64,000 bases of DNA from Patescibacteria group bacterium (lineage in GTDB: Bacteria; Patescibacteriota; Minisyncoccia; UBA6257; HR35). Position numbers and translations under genes: made by a program. The stretch is from the NCBI GenBank assembly GCA_030549895.1, contig JAUQQM010000002.1:1037-65036 (forward strand). The letters are read 5' to 3'. Under the pieces are notes generated by a model. That model did not search any database. It was not told the origin of the DNA and saw nothing but the letters and a program-made list of their open reading frames with translations. This document shows, one piece after another, positions 1-11,541 of this stretch; the stretch's first letter is position 1, and each line of letters begins with the position of its first letter.

Positions 1-80
1 AGTTGCTTTTGAAAAACTAAAAATGCGGCAACAACTAAAACAACAATTAGGATTAAGTAAATTATTAGCTTTTTATTCAT
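1..80 (-). CDS. 5' end of a gene running off the left edge, with an N-terminal membrane anchor or signal (MNKKLIIYLILIVVLVVAAFLVFQKQ...)
   Basis: ATG at 80 on the minus strand, open to position 1. The N-terminus is hydrophobic. It is absent from the ORF track because it is truncated by the window edge. Confidence 0.3.
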   Translation of the reverse strand, partial: MNKKLIIYLILIVVLVVAAFLVFQKQ

Positions 81-172
81 TTTTTGGGGAAAAATAAATT
101 TTATTTTAAGATTATAACCCAAAGTTTAAAAAAATTACACCTAAAATTTGTGGATAATTTTAAAAATTATTG

Positions 173-589
173 CTAAAATTTTAGTTTGCCTTTTTCAAAT
201 TTATAACAAAATAAAAGAAGTAAAAAAATTATTATAAAAATTGTGTCAGTCACAGTGCAATAAAAACAAATAGATTTTAAAACAAAAAATTGAATCCCAA
301 GTAAAATTAAAGCTACAAGAGTGCCACTGAAAGAAATCAATAAAAGAATTTTTCTTTTTCTAAAAGAAAATAAAAAGATAATCAATAAAGCATAAATCAT
401 CCCAAAAATTGAAAGAGGTATATCAAAAATCCTGCTATATTTGCTTTTTAAAACTAAATCACAGCCATTAAAAATTGAACATGAAGATGAAGTTGAATAA
501 GAAAGTTTCGTTAAATATAAAGAAATTAAAAAAGTAATAAAAGCAAGTAGAAAAATCAAAAATTTTAAAATCTTTCTAAGTATAATCAT
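173..589 (-). CDS. Vitamin K epoxide reductase (VKOR) family membrane thiol oxidoreductase (DsbB analogue)
   Basis: 138 aa, multi-TM. It has a loop Cys pair followed by the S-x-Y...G-I-P-type segment (SCSIFNGCDLVLKSKYSRIFDIPLSIFG) and an intramembrane CxxC (CFYC). Confidence 0.75.
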   Translation of the reverse strand: MIILRKILKFLIFLLAFITFLISLYLTKLSYSTSSSCSIFNGCDLVLKSKYSRIFDIPLSIFGMIYALLIIFLFSFRKRKILLLISFSGTLVALILLGIQFFVLKSICFYCTVTDTIFIIIFLLLLFCYKFEKGKLKF

Positions 590-593
590 AATA

Positions 594-1135
594 TTAAATA
601 TTTATTTGAAAATTGGGTACTTCTGAACTAATTTTGTTTTTTTCCCAAAGATTTACCAAACCTAAATATCTTCCTGAATTGGACAAACATAAAACTGCTA
701 TAGTAATAATATAAACAATGTGCTCATCAATTAAAGGTTTATATTCTGGCAAAATAAAACCAGCTAAATACATTAAAGCAAGCATTAAACCAGCAAAAAA
801 AGTTGAAAGTTTCATAAAAATACCAATACCAAGTATTAGTCCTATCCCAATACATAAAAGACCTAACATAAAAAGCCAATCAACAACTGGGTTACCTGCT
901 AAACTTTTAAAAATTTCAGCAAATGGACCTTTGGTAGTAAATTTTAAAAAGCCAAAAATTGGCGAACCTCCATAAAGCCAAGCTTGATTGCAGAAATAAT
1001 TGAACATACCTGTTTTAGCATCTCGAAAGGTTGAAAAACCTAAACCAAAAAGTTTACCGAAAAAGCCCATAAAAATATCCAAACCAAAGCAAGACGCAAA
1101 AGTCCTAAAGAAATTTGGAGATTTTTATTTTCCAT
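594..1135 (-). pseudogene. DoxX/DoxD-family membrane protein interrupted by a 1-nt frameshift in a T5 run
   Basis: The ATG at 1135 gives MENKNLQISLGLLRLALVWIFLWAF, a typical DoxX N-terminus, then runs into a stop at 1040-1042. The rest of the protein (FFGKLFGLGFST...VDWLFMLGLL...IDEHIVY...) is in the -1 frame (tracked ORF 594..1082). The frames rejoin exactly if the coding-strand T5 run (plus-strand A5 at 1060-1064) is T6. Confidence 0.6.
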
Positions 1136-1164
1136 TTTTTAATCAATTTTTAATAACAACCTGG

Positions 1165-1212
1165 CTAAAATTTTTGATAAATTAAAAACTTACATTCACC
1201 TATTTCTATCAT
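1165..1212 (-). CDS. 15-codon mini-ORF (MIEIGECKFLIYQKF) at the predicted 5' end of the doxX-vkor transcript
   Basis: The ATG at 1212 lies 8 nt after a TATAAT box (1221..1226, minus strand), the same geometry as real leaderless genes in this window. The ORF ends 29 nt before the doxX ATG. Confidence 0.2.
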   Translation of the reverse strand: MIEIGECKFLIYQKF

Positions 1213-1220
1213 CAATTTAT

Positions 1221-1226
1221 ATTATA
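1221..1226 (-). promoter_or_regulatory. -10 box (TATAAT), candidate promoter of the doxX-vkor unit
   Basis: This is the only TATAAT in the 1136-1300 gap on the minus strand, downstream of the terminator at 1301-1322. Confidence 0.35.
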
Positions 1227-1300
1227 ATTTATTTTCTAAAAATTTTAAAAATTACATAAAAACTAATAGAAAAAGAGGTGTTTTGATATTTAAATAAAAA

Positions 1301-1322
1301 GCCAGCGCTTTAAAGCGCTGGC
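1301..1322 (-). terminator. Rho-independent terminator of the 145-aa secreted-protein gene
   Basis: Perfect GC-rich hairpin GCCAGCGC-TTTAAA-GCGCTGGC, 25 nt after the stop at 1347, followed on the minus strand by TTTTTATTTA. Confidence 0.75.
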
Positions 1323-1346
1323 CCTCGACCTTTAAAACTTAGTAAA

Positions 1347-1784
1347 TTATTGAGTGGATGTTGTTGTGGTTGGGGTTGGGGTTGATGTAGGTACTCTAAG
1401 TTGCTTACATTCTGTTTTAACTCTCCTCAGTTCTTGATTGAACCACTTGTTTATTTCTTTTATTTCATGAGTATAGGTCTTCTTTATCTCTTTTTTGGCC
1501 TCAGTAGTTGTTGCATTATTATATGCTTCTTTGAAGTTACTTAAAGCCTGTTTTTTCTTGTTCTGCATTTCTTTTGTTAATTCTTGCGCTTTCTTTCCAA
1601 CACAAGCTTTATAAATCCCTGAAGGAGTAGTTGTTGCTGTAGAGATACCCTTTCTAACACCAAACTCTCCTGGTGTTGATGTTGGTCTATAAGAAGGTAC
1701 AGACTTTGTTTTAATAACCAAAGCGAAAGCTGATTGAGTAACTAAGAAGATAGCTAAAGTTATAAGGATAAAGTATTTTTTCAT
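1347..1784 (-). CDS. Small secreted protein: signal peptide, helical Lys/Glu-rich core with 2 Cys, flanked by PTSTP-type Thr/Pro linkers
   Basis: It has a signal-like N-terminus (MKKYFILITLAIFLVTQSAFA) and ends in PTSTPTPTTTTSTQ. It appears monocistronic and has its own strong terminator. Confidence 0.6.
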   Translation of the reverse strand: MKKYFILITLAIFLVTQSAFALVIKTKSVPSYRPTSTPGEFGVRKGISTATTTPSGIYKACVGKKAQELTKEMQNKKKQALSNFKEAYNNATTTEAKKEIKKTYTHEIKEINKWFNQELRRVKTECKQLRVPTSTPTPTTTTSTQ

Positions 1785-1845
1785 GTTAGGGTTAATAAAA
1801 TTTTAATTTTGACTTAGTGAGGGTATTTAAATACTATTAGATTAA

Positions 1846-2151
1846 TTAAACTAAAGGCGGTGAACGAGTGTGAAGTTTACTTGTAAAATTACTTGGCTGA
1901 TATATTTCAAAACACGTAAAGAATTTATCAAAATAATTTTTAAAAATAGTAAGGTTTATTAAAAATAAATTAACTAAAAGAAAAATTAGATAAATTGCGT
2001 TATTATCAGAATAGATAAATTCTAAAATATCATAATTATCAGGATCGAGAGTAAAAATTAATTCTAGGTCTGGATGTTGATAGTTATAAAGAATAACAGA
2101 AAGACCAACAATTCCTGAGATCAATAGAAAGACAACTAAATATTTTTTCAT
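1846..2151 (-). CDS. Hypothetical small membrane protein (2 TM)
   Basis: 101-aa ORF with TGGTATAAT 8 nt upstream of the ATG and two hydrophobic segments. Confidence 0.5.
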   Translation of the reverse strand: MKKYLVVFLLISGIVGLSVILYNYQHPDLELIFTLDPDNYDILEFIYSDNNAIYLIFLLVNLFLINLTIFKNYFDKFFTCFEIYQPSNFTSKLHTRSPPLV

Positions 2152-2159
2152 TATAATTA

Positions 2160-2168
2160 ATTATACCA
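2160..2168 (-). promoter_or_regulatory. Extended -10 (TGGTATAAT), leaderless-type, 8 nt before the ATG at 2151
   Basis: Plus-strand attatacca. There is no SD in the gap. Confidence 0.45.
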
Positions 2169-2197
2169 TAAAATTATAATTAAACCCCGATAATAAT

Positions 2198-2587
2198 ATG
2201 TCAATTCTTACTATAAAAACAAGGAAAAAACGAGAAATAATAGATATTACTGAAGATATTAACAGCTTGTTAAACAATCAAGAAAAAGAAAGTGGTTTAG
2301 TTTACCTTTTTGCCCTTCATACAACTTGTGCTTTAACTACTGCTGATTTAGATCCAGAAACAGATTTAGATTATTTAGATGCTTTCAAAGAAATTGTACC
2401 TAAATTAAAATATCGACATCCTCATAATCCAGAACATTTCCCTGATCATTTTCTTTCTTCACTTGTTGGTACTTCCCTCCTTCTTCCTTTTGAAAATAAA
2501 AGTCTAGTTTTAGGAACTTGGCAAAGAGTAATTTTAATAGAATTTGATGGACCAAGAGAAAGAAAGATTGTTGTCAAAATTATTTAA
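2198..2587 (+). CDS. YjbQ/UPF0047 family protein (secondary thiamine-phosphate synthase-like)
   Basis: 129 aa. It shows the family pattern: I.DIT..I, LFALHTTCALT..DLDPE, HFLSSLVG.SL.LP...L.LGTWQ.V.L.EFDGPR.R. Confidence 0.8.
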   Translation: MSILTIKTRKKREIIDITEDINSLLNNQEKESGLVYLFALHTTCALTTADLDPETDLDYLDAFKEIVPKLKYRHPHNPEHFPDHFLSSLVGTSLLLPFENKSLVLGTWQRVILIEFDGPRERKIVVKII

Positions 2588-3299
2588 TCTCATAAGTAAT
2601 AGTTACTGAAATTTTTATTTCTTGGGAGCCTGGTTCGATTTGAGGTGTTATTCCTGGTACTCCTGCCCCCATCTCTTTTAAAAATACTGGATAAGGTGGC
2701 GGGAAATATCCAGATGATTCTGTTATATTTACAATTTTTCCAAGTTTAAAACCTGCTATTTTAGCAATTTTCTCTGCCTTTTCCTTTGTCTCTTTAATTG
2801 CTTTTTCTCTTGCTTTATCTAAATAGACTTTTTCGTCATCAACTGTAAACTTAGGACCATAGATATTATTAGCACCATTTTGCACTGCCCCACTTAAAAT
2901 TTCTCCAACTTTATTTAAGTTTCTAATTTTTACAGAAAAACCTTGACTAATTGTATAACCAACTATTTCTGTCACTTTATCATATCTATATTTTGGAGTA
3001 ATTGAATAATTTTCTGTTTTTATATCCCTTTCTTCAATCCCTTGACTCTTTAAAAATTGAATTACTTTATTAAACTTTTCACTATTTTCCTTTTGAAGCT
3101 CGATTAAGTCCTTTCCTTCACTAATTAAACCAATATTTAATTCAGCAACATTGGGAAAAATTATTTCTTTAGCTTCACCAGTAACAGAAAAACTTCTTCG
3201 AATTTCTCTACTTTTTGTATATTCATAAACAAACCAAAAACTTACAATAATAAAAAGAAAAATTCCTATAATAATTGAAAATTTTAAAATTTTGCCCAT
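2580..3299 (-). CDS. SIMPL-domain (DUF541) secreted or membrane-anchored protein
   Basis: 239 aa with an N-terminal TM segment. The SIMPL-like repeat pattern includes SVTGEAKEIIFPNVAEL... and ...EIKISVTITYEI. Confidence 0.7.
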   Translation of the reverse strand: MGKILKFSIIIGIFLFIIVSFWFVYEYTKSREIRRSFSVTGEAKEIIFPNVAELNIGLISEGKDLIELQKENSEKFNKVIQFLKSQGIEERDIKTENYSITPKYRYDKVTEIVGYTISQGFSVKIRNLNKVGEILSGAVQNGANNIYGPKFTVDDEKVYLDKAREKAIKETKEKAEKIAKIAGFKLGKIVNITESSGYFPPPYPVFLKEMGAGVPGITPQIEPGSQEIKISVTITYEIK

Positions 3300-3304
3300 T
3301 TTAA

Positions 3305-3313
3305 ATTATAACA
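3305..3313 (-). promoter_or_regulatory. Extended -10 (TGTTATAAT), 5 nt before the SIMPL ATG at 3299
   Basis: Plus-strand attataaca. It overlaps the ndh stop codon. Confidence 0.45.
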
Positions 3314-4508
3314 CCCTCTTAAAAAATAAGAAGGAAATTAAATTTTCTAAAATTTTTATCTTATGAGGAAACGAAATCATCTTAACTAAATAAATAAACC
3401 TTTTAAGAAGAGAAACAAAAAATCCAGAAATAAAAATGTTAAAAATTTGAGCAACAGCATAATAGAAACCAAGAGAAATAATATCGCCGGAATGTTTATA
3501 TTTAAAAGTTTTTTTATTATTTAAATTCTTGATATTGAAAGCAAGAACTTTTGCTTGTTTAGTAGCGACTTGGGCTGATTGACTTAATTGTCTTTGATTT
3601 TCTAAGAAACAAGCAATATCTCCAAGACAAAAGACGTCATTATAAGCCTCCGAATTTGACTTTAAAAGTTGAAGATTTTCATTAACTAAAAGTCTACCGC
3701 TGTTATCTTTTAAAAAATCTCCTATAATTTCTGGAAGATTTGCTTTTATACCTGCAGTCCAAATAGTAGTTCTTGTATAAATAATCTCATCTCCTAATTT
3801 AACAAAATTTTCACCTACCTCAGTAACAATTTTACCTAAAATCAACTTTATACCTTTTTCTTTTAACTTTAATAAAGCTGCTTTACGCATTTTTTCTGAA
3901 AATTGAGTCAATATTTCATTTTTTCCTTCAACTAAAATTATTCTTATCCTTTCTAAAACTTTTTTTGAAATTTTATTTTTCATTATTCTAAAAAATAAAT
4001 CACTTAAATTTCCGACAAGTTCAACGCCCGTCGCTCCACCTCCAACAATAACGAAAGTTAAAAATTCATCAAAGTTTTCTTTATATTTTTCTTTTTCAAA
4101 AATTTCAAAAATATGATTTTTAAGTTTTAAAGCTGAGTCTAAACGTTTTAAAGACCAGCAATTTTCTTTCCCAATAATATTATAGTAATTAACTTCCGCG
4201 CCCAAACAAATTACTAAAATTTCATAATTTATTTCTTCTTGATTAACATAAACAAGTTTTTTATTTAAATCAATTTTATTTACTTTCCCAGAAATAAACT
4301 TAAACCGCAATGATTTTGATATTTCCTTGAAATAAACTCTTACAGCCTCCTCACTAACAAAGCCGCAAACAAAATCGATTAATAATGGAGTAAATAAAAA
4401 ATATTCATTATCGTTTACTAAAATAACCTCATTTTTATTTAAAAATTTTCCAAGATATTTTAAAGTGTAAATACCTCCAAAACCCCCACCTAAAATCAAA
4501 ATTTTCAT
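3306..4508 (-). CDS. ndh: Type II NADH:quinone oxidoreductase (NDH-2), FAD-dependent pyridine nucleotide-disulfide oxidoreductase
   Basis: 400 aa with two dinucleotide-binding motifs (KILILGGGFGG and FVIVGGGATGVE) and a hydrophobic C-terminal membrane-anchoring tail. Confidence 0.8.
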   Translation of the reverse strand: MKILILGGGFGGIYTLKYLGKFLNKNEVILVNDNEYFLFTPLLIDFVCGFVSEEAVRVYFKEISKSLRFKFISGKVNKIDLNKKLVYVNQEEINYEILVICLGAEVNYYNIIGKENCWSLKRLDSALKLKNHIFEIFEKEKYKENFDEFLTFVIVGGGATGVELVGNLSDLFFRIMKNKISKKVLERIRIILVEGKNEILTQFSEKMRKAALLKLKEKGIKLILGKIVTEVGENFVKLGDEIIYTRTTIWTAGIKANLPEIIGDFLKDNSGRLLVNENLQLLKSNSEAYNDVFCLGDIACFLENQRQLSQSAQVATKQAKVLAFNIKNLNNKKTFKYKHSGDIISLGFYYAVAQIFNIFISGFFVSLLKRFIYLVKMISFPHKIKILENLISFLFFKRVL

Positions 4509-4515
4509 AATTAGA

Positions 4516-5316
4516 TTATTCTTGGTTTTGAAACCTTAAAATACAACTATTATATTCTTTAACCTTTAAATTATAATCTTCAATAAAACTTTTTGTTTTT
4601 ATAATAAGCTCATTATAAGAATGAACTTTTCTATTATACTCGTCAATTAAAGAAAGGACTTCATAAGGATTTTCATTTTTTGTTATCCTTTCTAAAAGAT
4701 CATCTAATTCCTTTTTTAAAATTTCTATCTTATTTTTATTTTCATTTATTCTGGTTTGTAAATCTTCTGATGGTTTAGGGCATAAATCTTCAGGACTTCC
4801 AAAATGTTGAACAAAAACATATACTTCTTTTCCTTTAAAATTACCTTTTACAAAACCTACACCAAGATGATAGAAATTTTTATTTAAAATATTTTTTCTA
4901 TGAGGGGGGCTTTCCATCCAATCTCTAACTACTTCCTCCTCTGATTTTGGCCTACCCATAAACAAATTTTCTCCAACAATTATAAACTTGTAATTTGAAT
5001 CAATTATAAAATCTGTAAAATTCTTTCCAGATGGACTTTTATGATCAAAATATTGATTCAAAAGAATATCCTCTGCTTTTCTTTGAGCGCTTAAATCAAG
5101 CTTCTGGTCTGAAATTAAATCTTGAAGACCGTTTTGTCTTCGGTAAAAATTAGTATAGAAAATTATTTTTTCTTTATCAAATTGGTTGTCTTCAAAAGAA
5201 ATTGAGGTCGTTGAAAAATTTTTCTTTAACTCATTTAAAACTGGCTGTAAATTTTGATTATTCTTTGACAATAAGATTAACAATATAAGAATTATTAAAT
5301 TTTCTATTTTACTCAT
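4516..5316 (-). CDS. Secreted CAP/SCP/PR-1 domain protein with a C-terminal coiled coil
   Basis: 266 aa. CAP motifs are present: YFDHKSPSG, GENL, WMESPPHRKNILN..Y.HLGVG. Confidence 0.75.
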   Translation of the reverse strand: MSKIENLIILILLILLSKNNQNLQPVLNELKKNFSTTSISFEDNQFDKEKIIFYTNFYRRQNGLQDLISDQKLDLSAQRKAEDILLNQYFDHKSPSGKNFTDFIIDSNYKFIIVGENLFMGRPKSEEEVVRDWMESPPHRKNILNKNFYHLGVGFVKGNFKGKEVYVFVQHFGSPEDLCPKPSEDLQTRINENKNKIEILKKELDDLLERITKNENPYEVLSLIDEYNRKVHSYNELIIKTKSFIEDYNLKVKEYNSCILRFQNQE

Positions 5317-5663
5317 TAATAAGGGCAGTCAGCTTCTTTGGCTAAAACTTCTAATTTTTGAAAACCTACAAGCCTTTTACCATTTTTAAATTCCCAGGTT
5401 GGTACTGAAGTAATATTAAAACACCTCTCCTTTTCTTTAGTGCACTCAATATAATTTATGTATCTAAAACTTTTTCCAAATGAATTTTTTTGCTTTTGGC
5501 AATAAGGACAATAATATGTACCGTACATCACTACACCTTTTTGGCTAAGACAAATAGCTAAATTTTTTATTTTTTCATTTTCTTTAGATGGTTGAGAAAA
5601 AATAGAAACAAAAATTATAAAAATAAAAATTAAAAAGAAAATTAAAAATACTCTCTTACTCAT
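5316..5663 (-). CDS. Membrane-anchored thioredoxin-like protein, matching the Trx-like domain fused to cyanobacterial or actinobacterial VKOR
   Basis: 115 aa with an N-terminal TM segment. It has VVMYGTYYCPYCQKQKNSFGK...YIECT...C...ITSVPTWEF.NG.R..G...LE.LA, with a CPYC active site. Confidence 0.7.
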   Translation of the reverse strand: MSKRVFLIFFLIFIFIIFVSIFSQPSKENEKIKNLAICLSQKGVVMYGTYYCPYCQKQKNSFGKSFRYINYIECTKEKERCFNITSVPTWEFKNGKRLVGFQKLEVLAKEADCPY

Positions 5664-6132
5664 TACAGCAATCTATTAATTTTTCGATCACCTGTTGAAG
5701 TTTGTTTTTTTCTTTTATCTCCTTTATATCTTCGATTTTAATTATGTTAAATTTTAAACCAAAAAATAAATTAAAAAGTTCATAAGCAGACTCATAAAAA
5801 CTTTTCGCCTCATCTTTTTTTCCTTCGGAAAATAATTTTTCTCCAACTTCGAAAAATCTATAAACTGCACCCAAAATGTGTTTGGAACAGCACCAAAGTT
5901 CTCCTTCTGGTTCTTTAATAATTTTTGTCATTGCATCTTTTCTTATGTTTCTTACCTTTTCTATTAAATCTAAATATTCTTCTTTCTTTGTTTTTTCATA
6001 AGTAAAATAAAAATGTTCTTCTAAACTTATAAGATGCATAATTGCTACAGCTAAATCTTCTTGAGCTTCAAAATTAATTTTTTCTTTTTCTTTGAACTCT
6101 CTAATTTTTTCAATTAGTTCATCCAAACTCAT
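5656..6132 (-). CDS. Hypothetical cytoplasmic helical protein with two vicinal Cys pairs (WCCSKH and C-terminal DCCNE)
   Basis: 158-aa ORF between ccdA and the Trx-like gene. TGGTATAAT lies 5 nt before its ATG, and its 3' end overlaps the Trx-like gene start by 8 nt. Confidence 0.5.
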   Translation of the reverse strand: MSLDELIEKIREFKEKEKINFEAQEDLAVAIMHLISLEEHFYFTYEKTKKEEYLDLIEKVRNIRKDAMTKIIKEPEGELWCCSKHILGAVYRFFEVGEKLFSEGKKDEAKSFYESAYELFNLFFGLKFNIIKIEDIKEIKEKNKLQQVIEKLIDCCNE

Positions 6133-6137
6133 AAAAA

Positions 6138-6146
6138 ATTATACCA
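6138..6146 (-). promoter_or_regulatory. Extended -10 (TGGTATAAT), 5 nt before the ATG at 6132
   Basis: Plus-strand attatacca in the 18-nt gap after ccdA. Confidence 0.45.
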
Positions 6147-6150
6147 TAAT

Positions 6151-6816
6151 CTAGCTCAAAAGCACAAAAAGACCTAAAGCAAAAAATATCAGGCCAGAGA
6201 TAATTCTGTAAGTCTTAATTGATCTTTTTTTAATGATTTCAATCTTTTCTATATATTTTGTTGAAAGAAAAAGAATCAAAATAAGGGGTAGAATAAAAAT
6301 TAAATTGTAAATAAAAAGGTAAAAAAGTCCTTTAATAAAAGTAGTTTTCTCGTTCAAAAGACTAAGAACAAAAAAATAAGGACCCCCAGTGCAAGGAAAT
6401 TCTGTTGAACCAACTAAAAAACCTAAAATAAAACTTGAACTAAATGAAGCTCGACTAATTAGACTAGCAATAGTTTCTTTTGCGCCCTCAATTATTTGAG
6501 GTCTTATAGGAAAATTTTTAAAAATTGCTCCTAACAGTTCAATTAGACCATAAAAAATAAGAATGGCTGAAGTAATTTTTGAAATAATCCTTGGAATTCC
6601 TAAAATATTAAATACTTTTAAAATCCCAACTCCAATTAAAAAATAAGTAAGGAAGATAGCAAAAATATAAACAAATCCAACTTTAAAAATAAATTTTTTA
6701 TCCTCTTTATTTACTAAAAGAAAAGAAAGAGTAATAATTAAAACAGAAATAGCACAAGGATTAATACTATCTAAAAAGCTGCTTATGATGATTACAAAGA
6801 TATCTTTAAATTCCAT
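6151..6816 (-). CDS. ccdA: CcdA/DsbD_2-type thiol:disulfide electron-transfer membrane protein
   Basis: 221 aa, 6 TM. The two conserved membrane Cys motifs are present: DSINPCAISVL and EFPCTGGPYF. Confidence 0.7.
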   Translation of the reverse strand: MEFKDIFVIIISSFLDSINPCAISVLIITLSFLLVNKEDKKFIFKVGFVYIFAIFLTYFLIGVGILKVFNILGIPRIISKITSAILIFYGLIELLGAIFKNFPIRPQIIEGAKETIASLISRASFSSSFILGFLVGSTEFPCTGGPYFFVLSLLNEKTTFIKGLFYLFIYNLIFILPLILILFLSTKYIEKIEIIKKRSIKTYRIISGLIFFALGLFVLLS

Positions 6817-9158
6817 TAAACTCCTAGTAAATAAATAGTCTTTATAACAGCATCAGGTGAAAGAGAAATAGAACCAATGCCAGCTTCTACAAGAAATTTA
6901 GCAAAATCAATAAAAGTAGAAGGAGCATCACCACAGATACCAATATATTTACCTCTTTCATTACATTTTTGAATTACTTCTTTTATTAGTTTTTTAACAG
7001 ATTCGTTTCTTTCATCACTAATTCCTTGCAAAATTTCATTATCTCTATCAATCCCAAGAGTAAGTTGAGTTAGATCGTTAGAACCAATCGACATACCATC
7101 AAAAATATCTAAAAATTCATCCGCCTGCAAAATGTTTGAAGGAATCTCACACATAACATAAACTTTATAACCTTTTTCCTTCCTTTCACCCATTATCTCT
7201 TCAATTATCTCTATAACTTTTCTGCCTTCTTCTGGAGTCCGACAAAACGGAACCATAAGAGTTAAATTATCTAAACCAATTTCTTCTCTTACTTTTTTCA
7301 TAGCTGAAACTTCTAACTCAAAAGCTTTTTTAAAATTAGGATGATAATATCTACTCGCACCTCGCCAACCTATCATTGGATTTTCCTCTTGGGGCTCATA
7401 AAGATCGCCGCCAATCAAGTTTCTATACTCATTAGTTTTGAAATCAGAAAACCTAACAATAACTTCATTAGGCCAGTAAGCTGTACAAATTTTAGCTATT
7501 CCTTCAGCTAATTTATCAACAAAGTAAAGCTTTTTATCATCATAACTATAAGTAAGCTCATCAATTTTCTTTTTAACTTCCTCAGGTAAATTAGGATAAT
7601 CAATTAAAGCATTAGGATGAATTTTTATCTCTTCACTAATAATAAATTCTTCTCTTGCTAACCCAACACCTTTAACTGGTAAATACCATTTTTCCCAAGC
7701 CTCATCAGGAAGACCAATGTTTACATAAATTTTTGTTTTAGTTTCAGGTAATTTCTCTAAGTCGTGTTCGATAATTTCATAATCTAAGAGCCCTTTATAT
7801 ACATAGCCAGTAATACCACCAGTACAATCAATTGTTACTTCATCTCCTGTCCTTAAAACTTCAGTTGCTTTTTGAGTACCAACAATTGCGGGAATTCCAA
7901 GTTCACGAGAGACAATAGCACAATGAGAAGTTCTACCGCCAGCATCTGTAATAATTCCTTTAGCTATTTTCATTATTGGTACCCAATCTGGGTCTGTCAT
8001 CTCAGTCACCAAAATTTCACCTGCTTGAAATTCGTCTATTTTAGAAACATCCTTAATTACTCTAACTTTTCCCGAAATAATTTTTGAACCAATAGCAATT
8101 CCTTTAAGTAAAACTTCGCCCTTTTCTTTTAGTTTGTATTCTTCATAGATATTTTTCTTTTTTGTTGAATAAACTGTCTCAGCTCTTGCTTGAACAATAT
8201 AAAGTTTTCCGTCAATTCCATCCTTTGCCCATTCAATATCCATTGCTTGACCATAATGTTTTTCAATAATCCAGCCCATCTTAGCCAGTTCTAAAACTTC
8301 ATCATCAGTTAAAGAAAATTTTTCTTTTTCTTCTTTACTTGTTTGAATTTCTTTTGTACCGCCTTCTTGAGAATAAACAATTTTTTTAGTTTTATCTCCT
8401 AATCTTTTACTAACAACACTCCTAAATCCCTTCTCCAATCCCTTTTTAAAAACTATCCATTCATCAGGAATAACTCTTCCTTGAACAATAAGTTCACCCA
8501 ATCCCCAAACTCCATTAATAACGATTACCTTATCAAGTCCTGTATCAGTGTCAAGAGTAAACATAACCCCAGAACTAGCCAGATCAGAACGGACCATTTT
8601 TTGTACCCCAACAGAAAGTTTAACTTTAAAATGATCAAACCCTTTTTCTTGCCGATAAAAAATTGCTCTCTCAGTAAAAAGAGAAGCAAAACAAAATTTT
8701 ACTTTTTCAAGTAAATCTTTTTCTGTAACATTCAAATAAGTTTCTTGCTGACCAGCAAATGAAGCTGAAGGAAGATCTTCAGCCGAAGCACTGCTTCGAA
8801 CAGCAACTTGAAAATCTTCACCATATTCTTTCTTAAGTTCTTCAAAACTTTTCAAAATTTCTTCTTCCAAATCTCGAGGAAATTCTCCTTTTTTAATCAA
8901 ATTTCTTATCTCTTCGCCTGCTTGTTGAAGCTCTAAAACATTGTAAATGTTAGTTTTCTCTAATATTTTTTTAATTTTCTCCTCTAAATTGTTAAACTTA
9001 ATATAATATTCATAAGCTTTGGTAGTGATAGCAAAACCATTTGGAACTAAAACTCCTGACTTAGATAAGTAGCGGTACATCTGGCCCAAATTAGCATTTT
9101 TACCCCCAACAAGTTCTACATCTTCTTTTGAAAGATCTTTAAACCAAACAATGTACAT
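6816..9158 (-). CDS. ppsA: Phosphoenolpyruvate synthase (pyruvate, water dikinase)
   Basis: 780 aa with the phosphohistidine motif GGRTSHCAIVSRELGIPAIVG, an N-terminal ATP-grasp region and a C-terminal PEP-utilising domain. Confidence 0.9.
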   Translation of the reverse strand: MYIVWFKDLSKEDVELVGGKNANLGQMYRYLSKSGVLVPNGFAITTKAYEYYIKFNNLEEKIKKILEKTNIYNVLELQQAGEEIRNLIKKGEFPRDLEEEILKSFEELKKEYGEDFQVAVRSSASAEDLPSASFAGQQETYLNVTEKDLLEKVKFCFASLFTERAIFYRQEKGFDHFKVKLSVGVQKMVRSDLASSGVMFTLDTDTGLDKVIVINGVWGLGELIVQGRVIPDEWIVFKKGLEKGFRSVVSKRLGDKTKKIVYSQEGGTKEIQTSKEEKEKFSLTDDEVLELAKMGWIIEKHYGQAMDIEWAKDGIDGKLYIVQARAETVYSTKKKNIYEEYKLKEKGEVLLKGIAIGSKIISGKVRVIKDVSKIDEFQAGEILVTEMTDPDWVPIMKIAKGIITDAGGRTSHCAIVSRELGIPAIVGTQKATEVLRTGDEVTIDCTGGITGYVYKGLLDYEIIEHDLEKLPETKTKIYVNIGLPDEAWEKWYLPVKGVGLAREEFIISEEIKIHPNALIDYPNLPEEVKKKIDELTYSYDDKKLYFVDKLAEGIAKICTAYWPNEVIVRFSDFKTNEYRNLIGGDLYEPQEENPMIGWRGASRYYHPNFKKAFELEVSAMKKVREEIGLDNLTLMVPFCRTPEEGRKVIEIIEEIMGERKEKGYKVYVMCEIPSNILQADEFLDIFDGMSIGSNDLTQLTLGIDRDNEILQGISDERNESVKKLIKEVIQKCNERGKYIGICGDAPSTFIDFAKFLVEAGIGSISLSPDAVIKTIYLLGV

Positions 9159-9957: not shown

Positions 9958-11541
9958 ATGAAAAATGAACTAGAATTAAAGCTTAAGAAATTATTTAAAA
10001 CTAAAGAAAGACCTCAAGTAAGAGTAATCCTAAATGAGTATGGTGATCTTGCTTCAAATGTTCTTTTTATTGCTGCTAAAGAAAATAAAAAAGAACCTAA
10101 AAAAATTTGGGATGAATTTAAGGATGAAGTAGAAAAAAGACTGGCTAAAAATTTCGAAAAAATTGAATTTGTTAATGGTTATTTAAATTTTCACCTAAAA
10201 AAAGATTTGCTTTTCAAAACATTTAAAATTGCGGTAAAAAAACCAAAGCAAATATCTCTTTCTAATTTCGGACATAAACAAAAAGTAATAGTAGAATTTC
10301 TTTCAGCTAATCCGACTGGTCCTCTGCATTTAGGAAATGGAAGAAATGCGGTTCTAGGTGAAGTTATCTCAAGAGTTCTTAAAAAAACTGGATTTTCTGT
10401 TTTTAAAGAATACTATAACAATAACAGAGGCAGACAAATAAAAATTCTTGGTCTGAGTGCTCTTTCTTTTTTAAAACTTCCAACGGAAAACGAAAATGAG
10501 CTTTATAAAGGTAAATACCTCGAAGAATTAGTAAACAAAAACAAGGGTCTTTGTTTTAAATTTAAAGATCAACCAGAATATCTTGGCTATCTTTTAAGTA
10601 AAAAAATATTAGAATTTTACATCAAACCAACCTTAAAAAGTCTTGGCATAAAATTTGATAATTTCTTTTCTGAAAGATCGCTTTATAGTTCTCTTGATAA
10701 AGAAGTTCTTCAAAAAATCAAAAGACATACTTACAAAAAGGATGGTGCTTTATGGTTAAAACTTGAAACTAAAGATGAAGTTTTAATAAAAAGTGATGGA
10801 GAACCTACTTATTTTCTTTCAGACATTATTTATCATTATCATAAATTTGTAAAAAGAAACTTCAAATATGGAATTAATATTCTAGGTGCTGATCATTTAG
10901 ATCATGGAAGAAGACTAAAAGAAGCTTTAAAAATTCTTGGGATAAAAGAAAATAAACTAAAATTCATTATCTATCAGCTTGTTTATGTTAAAAAATTTGA
11001 AAAAATTCTAAAAATGTCAAAAAGAAAAGGAGATATTATCTTTTTAGATGACCTTATAAAAGAAGTTGGACCTGATCCAATAAAATTTTACTTTGTTTTT
11101 CATCCACCAGAAACTCATCTTACTTTTGATCTGGAATTAGCAAAGAAAAAAACAGAAGAAAATCTTTATTGGTACGTAGTCTATACAGGTGCCAGACTTG
11201 AGAGTATTTTAAAGAAATTTGGAAAAATCTCTAAAAAAGAAATTGATGTTAAAAAATGTTGGGAAATTTTCAAAGATAATAAGCAATTTATAGAAATCCT
11301 GAAAAGAATTTATTTTTGGAAAGAAATACTCATCGAAGTAGCTAAATCTTTACAAGTTCAAATTCTTCCTCAATACATTGTTGAAACATGCAAAAAAATA
11401 AATAACTTTTATGAAAGTGAAAAAATAATAGAAAAAGATAGATCAAAAACTTATCAAAAATTACCTGCAATAATTGCTTTAGTTAATTTTCTTAAAGAAG
11501 CTTTTGATACTCTTAATATAGAGTTCAAAGAAAAAGTTTAA
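9958..11541 (+). CDS. argS: Arginyl-tRNA synthetase
   Basis: 527 aa with the HIGH region SANPTGPLHLGNGRNA and the KMSKS-like loop KMSKRKG. Confidence 0.9.
   Translation: MKNELELKLKKLFKTKERPQVRVILNEYGDLASNVLFIAAKENKKEPKKIWDEFKDEVEKRLAKNFEKIEFVNGYLNFHLKKDLLFKTFKIAVKKPKQISLSNFGHKQKVIVEFLSANPTGPLHLGNGRNAVLGEVISRVLKKTGFSVFKEYYNNNRGRQIKILGLSALSFLKLPTENENELYKGKYLEELVNKNKGLCFKFKDQPEYLGYLLSKKILEFYIKPTLKSLGIKFDNFFSERSLYSSLDKEVLQKIKRHTYKKDGALWLKLETKDEVLIKSDGEPTYFLSDIIYHYHKFVKRNFKYGINILGADHLDHGRRLKEALKILGIKENKLKFIIYQLVYVKKFEKILKMSKRKGDIIFLDDLIKEVGPDPIKFYFVFHPPETHLTFDLELAKKKTEENLYWYVVYTGARLESILKKFGKISKKEIDVKKCWEIFKDNKQFIEILKRIYFWKEILIEVAKSLQVQILPQYIVETCKKINNFYESEKIIEKDRSKTYQKLPAIIALVNFLKEAFDTLNIEFKEKV

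Follow-up and report, generated by a model that had tools for sequence, protein, structure and literature searches.

Extracytoplasmic disulfide formation is understood mainly from DsbA/DsbB and DsbA/VKOR pairs, which need respiratory quinones, and little is known about how exported cysteines are handled in small-genome bacteria (and archaea) thought to be without quinone synthesis. Here, we examine a 64 kb stretch of DNA from a Patescibacteria group bacterium (contig JAUQQM010000002.1, positions 1,037 to 65,036; 64,000 nt, hereafter the window), one end of which encodes a stand-alone VKOR, a membrane-anchored thioredoxin-like protein (TrxL), a CcdA-like membrane protein and NDH-2. The first-pass annotation, made from the letters and open reading frames (ORFs) alone, had read these genes as a single redox island in which VKOR and its presumed thioredoxin partner are split between two genes. 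Our comparisons suggest two separately conserved membrane thiol-redox modules side by side, rather than one island. Module A (5316–6816) comprises the CcdA-like protein with both of its catalytic cysteines, a 158-residue protein (p158) and TrxL, all inside an operon that runs from a phosphoenolpyruvate synthase gene (PPS) to a SIMPL gene. Module B, reaching from beyond the window edge to position 1135, comprises a disrupted DoxX-like gene, the stand-alone VKOR, a membrane-anchored cytochrome b5 and a DoxX protein.

We consider it most likely, at a probability of about 0.5, that TrxL is the outer carrier of a pathway in which, in this lineage, VKOR oxidises it and CcdA-like and p158 provide its connection to the cytoplasm. 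In such a scheme, TrxL would act as an extracytoplasmic dithiol/disulfide carrier. VKOR, which has no adjacent DsbA-like gene, would re-oxidise TrxL and pass the electrons to a membrane quinone, and NDH-2 and the DoxX proteins would draw on the same, presumed, quinone pool. Paired with p158 on the cytoplasmic side, the CcdA-like protein would link the outer compartment to the cytoplasm and form a reducing or isomerising branch, one that in other genomes appears as part of copper-stress clusters. What follows on family assignment, catalytic cysteines, gene order, conservation and the statistics of co-location is direct observation; we infer which partners exchange electrons, which way these flow through CcdA-like and p158, that p158 is linked to a metal, and that a quinone is present.

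TrxL belongs to the thioredoxin-like type that is fused to VKOR in cyanobacteria, as had been recognised at first pass. Its match in the PDB covers residues 165–276 of the Synechococcus fusion (3kp9/4nv2; E = 7e-14), that is, transmembrane segment 5 and the thioredoxin domain. The structures 3kp9, 4nv2 and 3kp8 all score at about 1e-13, followed by glutaredoxins at 2e-3 and DsbA at 0.13. The alignment begins within the transmembrane segment (query residue 7 to chain residue 165) and matches C52/C55 as well as C74/C81, and so includes both the membrane helix and the second Cys pair. The active site of TrxL is CPYC, in addition to the second Cys pair; most orthologues have WC[PS]HC, with CPHC dominant.

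The gene at 173–589 is a VKOR, in agreement with the first-pass call. It scores 63.1 bits against PF07884 (cut-off 27.5) and aligns to residues 20–152 of the Synechococcus enzyme (4nv6/3kp9), with both Cys pairs matched. The protein has four hydrophobic segments, a loop pair Cys37/Cys43 and C108-F-Y-C111 in the last helix, and these four catalytic cysteines are invariant in the family alignment. By its family, it is predicted to re-oxidise a thioredoxin-fold partner with quinone. Both halves thus have counterparts in the Synechococcus sp. VKOR-thioredoxin fusion (3kp9, 4nv2, 4nv5, 4nv6; thioredoxin domain alone 3kp8), which has the same four-helix core, loop Cys pair and CxxC, followed by transmembrane segment 5 and a thioredoxin-like domain with CxxC and a second Cys pair. 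Unlike in the fusion, however, the halves in the window are separate genes, 4.7 kb apart and in different transcription units; the thioredoxin half lies inside the CcdA-like/p158 operon, and its active site is CPYC where that of the fusion is CPHC.

The neighborhoods of other stand-alone VKORs provide an argument for pairing VKOR with TrxL. A pattern scan of metagenome contigs yielded 80 such loci, with VKORs at 30–40% identity (a single-sequence protein search with VKOR gave 11 proteins, its reach being limited by the word prefilter). Together with contigs from an exact-protein look-up, 66 loci had enough upstream sequence to be evaluated. In 57 of these, the gene directly upstream, in the same orientation, encodes a DsbA-like protein (Thioredoxin_4/DSBA), one case being a gene fusion. 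A fusion at locus L130 (7914–9437; loci are cited below by such handles) is a single 508-codon frame with an N-terminal DsbA-like part and VKOR, unlike the cyanobacterial VKOR-Trx type. The window VKOR and its close relatives are without the upstream DsbA-like neighbor. A profile of 59 DsbA-like proteins found no DsbA-like gene in the 64 kb, nor is there another [WFY]CxxC thioredoxin-type ORF there; TrxL is the only one. The triad of CcdA-like, p158 and TrxL lies near VKOR at four of the nine loci that lack the DsbA-like gene (the window, L105, L127 and L140), versus one of the 57 that have it (L103; Fisher p = 0.0008, or 0.005 without the window). These four contigs (L103, L105, L127 and L140) are also the only places outside the window where we see TrxL near VKOR, and within the window the two genes are neither fused nor adjoining. 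At L105 and L127, VKOR and the CcdA-like gene share a strand, with VKOR 400–500 nt upstream. Because the VKORs of the triad-linked loci share at most 55% identity, they represent separate lineages. TrxL thus tends to sit near VKOR where the DsbA-like gene is missing.

A stand-alone VKOR with a separate membrane-anchored thioredoxin-fold protein as its proposed partner is also found in Mycobacterium tuberculosis (Rv2968c/Rv2969c; PMC3792642, PMC3853704), in which peptides derived from VKOR interact with the DsbA-like Rv2969c (PMC3792642). The window differs from this pair in having no DsbA-like (Thioredoxin_4/DSBA) gene and in that the candidate partner, TrxL, is small, is not adjacent to VKOR and is without the DsbA helical insert. 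VKOR is, in addition, a core gene in oral Saccharibacteria (PMC9040727).

Several observations weigh against VKOR as the oxidant of TrxL. The two genes are separated by the 4.7 kb noted above and belong to different transcription units, and the Fisher counts are small, with several of the loci short. The active-site motif leaves the direction of electron flow unsettled: CPHC is the motif of DsbA, and CPYC that of DsbG. If VKOR oxidised and CcdA reduced the same carrier, the two would drive a futile cycle, barring kinetic separation. The DoxX-like gene beside VKOR is broken, and part of module B may be decaying. Additionally, 64 kb of the genome is in view, and a DsbA-like gene may lie elsewhere. 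Finally, the triad works without a linked VKOR in most genomes, since VKOR is found within 10 kb of p158 at none of 81 p158-centred loci (single-sequence search plus VKOR profile). The idea of a split VKOR therefore survives in a weaker form, and the earlier interpretation is partly supported: VKOR does stand alone, TrxL is of the VKOR type and the triad is associated with DsbA-less VKORs, but the constant partners of TrxL are CcdA-like and p158.

The 81 loci also speak for the main rival account, in which TrxL serves CcdA-like and p158 only, in a reducing or copper-defence pathway, VKOR uses an oxidase encoded elsewhere, and the proximity of the two modules is mechanistically meaningless. TrxL would then keep exported Cys or copper-binding proteins reduced, as do CcdA-ResA, CcdA-Etrx/MsrAB and ScsB-ScsC. 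A single-sequence protein search with TrxL returned two proteins; its contexts were therefore gathered through the p158 family and by pattern scans. Neighbors were counted within 10 kb. CcdA-like is directly upstream of p158 at 48 of the 81 loci and TrxL directly downstream at 32, often with overlapping stops and starts, in line with this account. In the window itself, a stop/start overlap ties TrxL to p158, CcdA-like ends 18 nt before p158, and VKOR belongs to a separate transcription unit. A relative at 46% identity keeps the order CcdA-like, p158, TrxL and the same 8-nt overlap, with neither VKOR nor NDH-2 beside it. CopA, CsoR-like and DUF1573 genes are abundant at p158 loci, and characterised CcdA proteins mostly carry reducing power outward. 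This account is possible, if somewhat doubtful: TrxL is specifically of the VKOR-fused type, its orthologues mostly have the DsbA-like CPHC, the triad is enriched beside VKORs that lack a DsbA-like gene, and no DsbA-like gene was found in the 64 kb.

CcdA proteins with membrane-anchored thioredoxin-like partners are familiar from Bacillus subtilis (CcdA-ResA/StoA) and from thylakoids (CcdA-HCF164). In Streptococcus gordonii, small CcdA-type proteins with one Cys per Pro-Cys motif, CcdA1 and CcdA2, likewise have thioredoxin-like genes nearby (SdbB/Sgo_1177; PMC7034828). There, CcdA1 and CcdA2 reduce Trx-like lipoproteins that feed MsrAB, as the reducing account of TrxL would have it, yet CcdA2 and SdbB serve both this reducing pathway and an oxidase (PMC7034828). 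A single CcdA serving both branches thus has a precedent. The window departs from the characterised systems in four respects. Its CcdA-like protein is very distant, the p158 gene sits between CcdA-like and TrxL, and the triad has no adjoining cytochrome c or MsrAB gene and a TrxL of the VKOR-fused type.

The distance of the CcdA-like protein calls for some caution. The first-pass assignment to CcdA/DsbD_2 holds insofar as both Pro-Cys motifs are present and a family profile reaches a known CcdA, but the window protein itself falls below the Pfam cut-off for DsbD_TM (PF02683; 24.1 versus 27.1 bits, with the orthologue at L013 scoring 31.5). It has about six hydrophobic segments, with Cys21 in NPC and Cys142 in FPCTGGP. 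Both Cys motifs are invariant in 32 orthologues and align to the Pro-Cys motifs of CcdA. As a single sequence, it has no match in the PDB; the profile of the 32 orthologues has one relevant match, Thermus thermophilus CcdA (5vkv; E = 0.0025).

The middle gene of the triad, p158, had gone unnoticed at first pass. Its product matches nothing in Pfam or NCBIfam. A protein search retrieved 133 homologues, from Patescibacteria and one Aenigmatarchaeota genome (P0066), and at least 580 relatives occur among species-representative genomes. Invariant residues include M32, E38, E39, H40, E76, E78, W80, C81, H85 and a C-terminal Cys-Cys. An AlphaFold2 model predicts an all-helical bundle (pLDDT 89), for which the PDB has no significant match among solved folds; there is a weak resemblance to sulerythrin/rubrerythrin (E = 0.25; TM-score 0.27). 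One may reasonably infer that p158, in the cytoplasm, acts as a metal- or redox-active partner to the CcdA-like protein.

The triad could also be a quinone-free oxidising pathway, in which electrons from exported cysteines pass from TrxL through CcdA-like to p158 as a metalloprotein, and from there to oxygen, peroxide or another acceptor. Such a pathway would suit organisms without respiratory quinones. The dominance of the DsbA-type CPHC among TrxL orthologues is consistent with it, as is the occurrence of p158, which is specific to the module and found in Patescibacteria plus the one Aenigmatarchaeota-labelled genome. The invariant Glu, His, Met and Cys residues lie on a helical bundle that weakly resembles di-iron sulerythrin/rubrerythrin, and the oxidase SdbA of S. 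gordonii is described as having CcdA2 and SdbB for redox partners (PMC7034828). We nevertheless consider this pathway quite unlikely: the fold match of p158 is not significant, any metal or cofactor site is putative, and the presence of VKOR, NDH-2 and DoxX in the same genome argues for an available quinone. To our knowledge, no characterised CcdA runs inward as its main route. A related and broader proposition is that the triad constitutes a self-contained route for making or editing disulfides that typifies Patescibacteria, with p158, a possible metal binder linked to copper genes, replacing thioredoxin or even quinone as the partner of CcdA and with inward electron flow possible. We think this unlikely as well, to a somewhat lesser degree; if it were true, a triad with inward flow would let organisms without respiratory quinones oxidise exported cysteines.

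The neighbors of p158 in other genomes suggest a link to copper. At 33 of the 81 loci, p158 has a CopA-type ATPase gene within 10 kb, versus 4 of 86 VKOR-centred loci. Other recurrent neighbors at the 81 loci are a CsoR/RicR-like repressor (15), DUF1573 (18) and a membrane protein with an HCPLC motif (20). NDH-2 is found near p158 at none of them, and NDH-2 and CAP are not conserved neighbors of the module elsewhere. At L140 (200–10299), DUF1573, CcdA-like, p158, TrxL, CsoR-like, CopA, VKOR, DoxX-like and SIMPL follow one another in this order on one strand. This copper cluster repeats the CcdA-like, p158, TrxL, VKOR, DoxX-like and SIMPL genes of the window, not its NDH-2 or CAP. Genes for proteins of 296 and 171 residues and for a 402-residue FAD-type oxidoreductase also lie between TrxL and CopA, VKOR starts 4 nt after CopA, and a 126-residue membrane protein is encoded between VKOR and DoxX-like. 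At L007 (3579–6717), CopA, a CGCC-motif protein and an HCPLC membrane protein precede p158. The window itself has neither a CopA nor a CsoR-like gene.

Taken further, the copper association could mean that module A hands on a thiophilic metal ion (copper or similar) instead of electrons; the ion would pass from the CxxC of TrxL to the membrane Cys of CcdA-like and on to the Cys-Cys of p158. In mercury resistance, MerP, MerT and the C-terminal Cys pair of MerA pass an ion across the membrane in an analogous way. Such a relay is favoured by the strong co-location of p158 with CopA, CsoR-like and DUF1573 genes and with further genes for Cys-rich membrane or secreted proteins, as well as by the vicinal Cys pair at the C-terminus of p158 and its invariant Met, His and Cys. 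It is very unlikely all the same, given that both PC motifs align with those of the electron-transferring CcdA, that the homology of TrxL to a disulfide-exchange domain is clear and that copper genes are absent from the window. Another parallel is the Scs system for copper tolerance, in which ScsB, a DsbD-like membrane protein, acts with the thioredoxin-like proteins ScsC and ScsD. Module A shares with Scs a DsbD-family membrane protein, an outer thioredoxin-like protein and, through the CopA/CsoR-like clusters of p158, the copper link; it differs in having no ScsB-type periplasmic domain and in p158, which has no Scs counterpart, as well as in the missing copper gene.

In module B, the gene called DoxX/DoxD at first pass did not hold up as a single ORF. 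At 542 nt, the span 594–1135 does not divide evenly into codons. Translation from the ATG at 1135 meets a stop after 31 codons, the body of the gene (594–1082) is in another frame from the N-terminal 25 codons, and the C-terminal tail is shifted again. Relative to intact orthologues (L173, L174 and L007), the window copy has lost 1 nt in a T-run (about 1060–1066), gained 6 nt in frame and gained 1 nt in an A-run near the 3′ end (about 630–640). The window and an independent assembly, L001 (125–150), share an A-run of A7, which bears on sequencing error as a cause of the frameshifts; the run is A5 in L002, whose VKOR is identical to that of the window, and A6 in L173/L174. The run thus either truly varies or is error-prone in several data sets, with slipped-strand variation, gene decay and recurrent assembly error as candidate causes of the differences. 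We also considered an alternative genetic code, which is rejected here as the other ORFs are long and intact under translation table 11 and the break is a difference in homopolymer length.

Repaired in silico to 180 residues, the protein reaches 12.7 bits against Pfam DoxX (PF07681; cut-off 23.6) and has no match to DoxD (PF04173). A search of 1.8 billion representative proteins gave 581 homologues, which have 25–55 extra N-terminal residues compared with the window ORF; the ATG-started 158-residue version of the window protein is not on record. Of 38 homologues compared, 11 reach Pfam DoxX at E < 0.01 and two reach DoxD at 0.007. The family link therefore depends on the homologues and not on the window copy, which is at best a distant relative in the DoxX clan. 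Members of the DoxX family take part in the M. tuberculosis SodA-DoxX-SseA complex (DoxX) and in thiosulfate:quinone oxidoreductase (DoxD). The DoxX-like protein resembles them as a small multi-helix membrane protein, and differs from them in being frameshifted and below the cut-off.

Even so, the link between VKOR and DoxX-like proteins is real despite the damaged window copy, because it recurs as fusions and as adjacency in other contigs. Two of the 38 homologues are VKOR fusions (P0166 and P0184; 304 and 306 residues), in which VKOR, with its loop Cys pair and CxxC, is N-terminal and the DoxX-like domain C-terminal. The two genes are neighbors in the window, L111, L140, L173 and L174. DoxX-like follows VKOR in L111 and L140, and intact orthologues (82–85% identity) are directly upstream of it in L173/L174. 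On the other side of VKOR, two contigs from other sequencing runs (L001 and L002), with VKORs 100% identical to that of the window, continue past the window edge into a membrane-anchored cytochrome b5 and then a DoxX, both of which lay outside the view of the first-pass annotation. The cytochrome b5 scores 78 bits against PF00173 (cut-off 23.7), with HPGG, a downstream KHGG in the L001 translation and an acidic linker. The DoxX that follows is a true one (PF07681, 32.8 versus 23.6 bits), with a start codon that overlaps the stop of b5 (b5/DoxX at L001 653–1488). Relatives with VKORs of 89–96% and 70% identity show the same succession of VKOR, cytochrome b5 and DoxX (b5/DoxX at L089 2485–3368; also L090–L093). 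Cytochrome b5 proteins are known in the candidate phyla radiation (CPR), co-located with ferric-reductase-like genes (bioRxiv 10.1101/2021.11.17.468889). In the literature we searched, we found neither a fusion or adjacency of VKOR and DoxX-like proteins, nor a cytochrome b5 adjoining VKOR, nor a VKOR/cytochrome b5/DoxX unit. The linkage of VKOR to both DoxX-like proteins and cytochrome b5 hints at an unusual electron outlet.

The damage to the DoxX-like gene invites a bleaker reading of module B, namely that the VKOR side is a decaying remnant that contributes nothing and that the island is left-over synteny. Besides its two frameshifts, the gene upstream of VKOR encodes Gly at a site that is Asp in at least 90% of homologues, and its homopolymer tract differs between near-identical strains. 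VKOR, however, is intact with all four catalytic Cys, and is 89–100% identical in several independent assemblies, with intact cytochrome b5 and DoxX. On this evidence, a remnant is a most improbable explanation.

Of the other proteins predicted to use a membrane quinone, NDH-2 is securely assigned, as the first-pass annotation had proposed for 3306–4508. Full-length similarity is seen to Staphylococcus aureus NDH-2 (5na1; 2e-37 over residues 2–372), B. subtilis YjlD, Caldalkalibacillus thermarum 4nwz and yeast Ndi1 (2e-37 to 3e-25; 2e-37 to 1e-33 for the three bacterial enzymes), with a score of 109 bits for Pyr_redox_2 and two dinucleotide-binding motifs of the GxGxxG type (GGGFGG and GGGATG). 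The C-terminus scores 14.2 bits against NDH2_C (PF22366; cut-off 27.7) and is hydrophobic from residue 350, like that of the S. aureus, C. thermarum and yeast enzymes. NADH:quinone oxidoreductase activity is thus predicted. Unlike those enzymes, NDH-2 here shares an operon with thiol-redox and secreted-protein genes. NDH-2 is reported to occur in the CPR, though rarely (bioRxiv 10.1101/2025.10.14.682086). Among the Pfam matches listed for the window (25 of 28–29 families per list), there is no men, ubi, haem or oxidase family, nor any other redox family in the remaining ORFs. As there is also no further [WFY]CxxC or DsbA-like ORF, the local concentration of redox genes in the 64 kb is real. 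We assume, by analogy with complete relatives of 680–900 kb, a genome of several hundred kb, of which the window is 64 kb. The quinone puzzle raised at first pass is real but not new. What the locus adds is that NDH-2, VKOR, two DoxX-type genes and cytochrome b5, all quinone- or haem-linked, lie close together.

The CPR-type origin assumed in posing that puzzle fits the sequence. The window has bacterial markers (PolA with a 5′-3′ exonuclease, UvrB, bacterial TopA, Mur ligases, MurG, MreB, EF-P, L27 and NusB), and its relatives are in Patescibacteria (best match 68% for PEP synthase and about 54% for p158). An archaeal source was considered, owing to a 13.4 kb contig (L087; Logan SRR27730045) on which a VKOR 68% identical to that of the window (10001–10429) lies beside the archaeal markers SecY, PCNA, Spt4, Rpb7-like and Nre, and was ruled out by the bacterial markers. 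The resemblance suggests that VKOR was recently exchanged between small-genome bacteria and archaea.

The components described here are of known kinds. The literature we searched had no report of the operon of CcdA-like, p158 and a VKOR-type thioredoxin with its copper association, of the VKOR/DoxX-like fusions or of the VKOR/cytochrome b5/DoxX unit. Three leads follow. A stand-alone thioredoxin of the VKOR type tends to turn up beside VKOR at just those loci that lack the usual DsbA-like gene. A three-gene module is conserved, and its middle gene represents an undescribed family that has hundreds of members and occurs in copper-resistance clusters. And VKOR is physically linked to DoxX-like proteins, including by fusion, and to cytochrome b5. 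All three can be tested with established complementation assays in E. coli dsb mutants.

The layout of the region is given in Table 1 (gene calls are ORFs translated under table 11). The sequence around 1–9158 is densely coding, and the seven ORFs for VKOR, p145, SIMPL, NDH-2, CAP, the thioredoxin-like protein and the CcdA-like protein are confirmed on the minus strand, including the earlier CAP and SIMPL calls. The redox genes had been described as a single minus-strand block. This proved not to be the case: YjbQ lies on the plus strand, a terminator hairpin splits p145 from DoxX-like/VKOR, and the stretch is, as judged from sequence, at least three transcription units. From PPS at its head to SIMPL as its last gene, the order is PPS, CcdA-like, p158, TrxL, CAP, NDH-2, SIMPL, with intergenic gaps of −1, 18, −8, −1, 7 and 6 nt, and this spacing makes it read as one operon. 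The PPS stop overlaps the CcdA-like start, and the TrxL stop the CAP start (−1 in each case); p158 and TrxL overlap by 8 nt. DoxX-like and VKOR, separated by 4 nt, form a unit apart from p101/p145, because p145 is followed by a hairpin (1322–1301; −22.4 kcal/mol, z = −5.1, with none of 200 shuffles equally stable) and a U-run that extends to 1296. A consensus scan for promoters and terminators was uninformative in the AT-rich DNA of the window.

Table 1. Features of the redox stretch and its flanks, in window coordinates.
Feature	Position	Strand	Basis or remark
Cytochrome b5 gene, 5′ end (first 27 codons, ATG at 80)	1..80	-	continues beyond window edge
Stand-alone VKOR	173..589	-	PF07884 profile and alignment to Synechococcus VKOR
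DoxX-like membrane protein gene, disrupted	594..1135	-	frame analysis and intact orthologues
Intrinsic terminator hairpin and U-run 3′ of p145 (predicted)	1296..1322	-	sequence and folding energy
p145, 145 aa, predicted secreted, 2 Cys, Thr/Ser/Pro-rich ends, no family assigned	1347..1784	-	
p101, 101-aa small membrane protein, no family assigned	1846..2151	-	
YjbQ/UPF0047	2198..2587	+	PF01894, 110 bits
SIMPL/DUF541 (YggE-like), membrane-anchored	2580..3299	-	PF04402, 174 bits
NDH-2, 400 aa	3306..4508	-	Pyr_redox_2, 109 bits, and PDB matches
CAP/YkwD-family protein, 2 Cys	4516..5316	-	PF00188, 60 bits
TrxL, 115-aa membrane-anchored thioredoxin-like protein	5316..5663	-	PDB 3kp9/4nv2 residues 165-276
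p158, 158-aa undescribed predicted cytoplasmic protein	5656..6132	-	conserved homologues, no Pfam/NCBIfam match
CcdA-like, distant CcdA/DsbD_TM-family membrane protein	6151..6816	-	profile and Cys motifs
PEP synthase / pyruvate, water dikinase (PPS)	6816..9158	-	heads operon

Some of the flanking genes recur in other contigs. PPS is found near the p158 module at L009, L015, L029, L034, L043, L044, L048, L066 and L071, and within 10 kb of the triad at about 12 loci besides the window. In the relatives L089–L092, VKOR has a YjbQ fragment upstream of it in the opposite orientation. SIMPL, which has no Cys in its sequence, occurs within about 3 kb of VKOR (L140 9496–10299, L151 and L154), directly after TrxL at L070 (5869–6657), and about 5–8 kb from p158 at L039 and L051; as a YggE-like oxidative-stress protein, it may be part of the same stress theme. 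A family of 137-residue membrane proteins ending in LALHENSPA, with no family match (L127 1–273; L017 8068–8478), is found upstream of the p158 module at 14 loci, and at L127 directly upstream of VKOR. Finally, three short adjacent fragments at L063 (4703–5225, minus strand) match p158 in different frames, in addition to an intact copy at 10001–10528, and look like a degraded second p158 gene.

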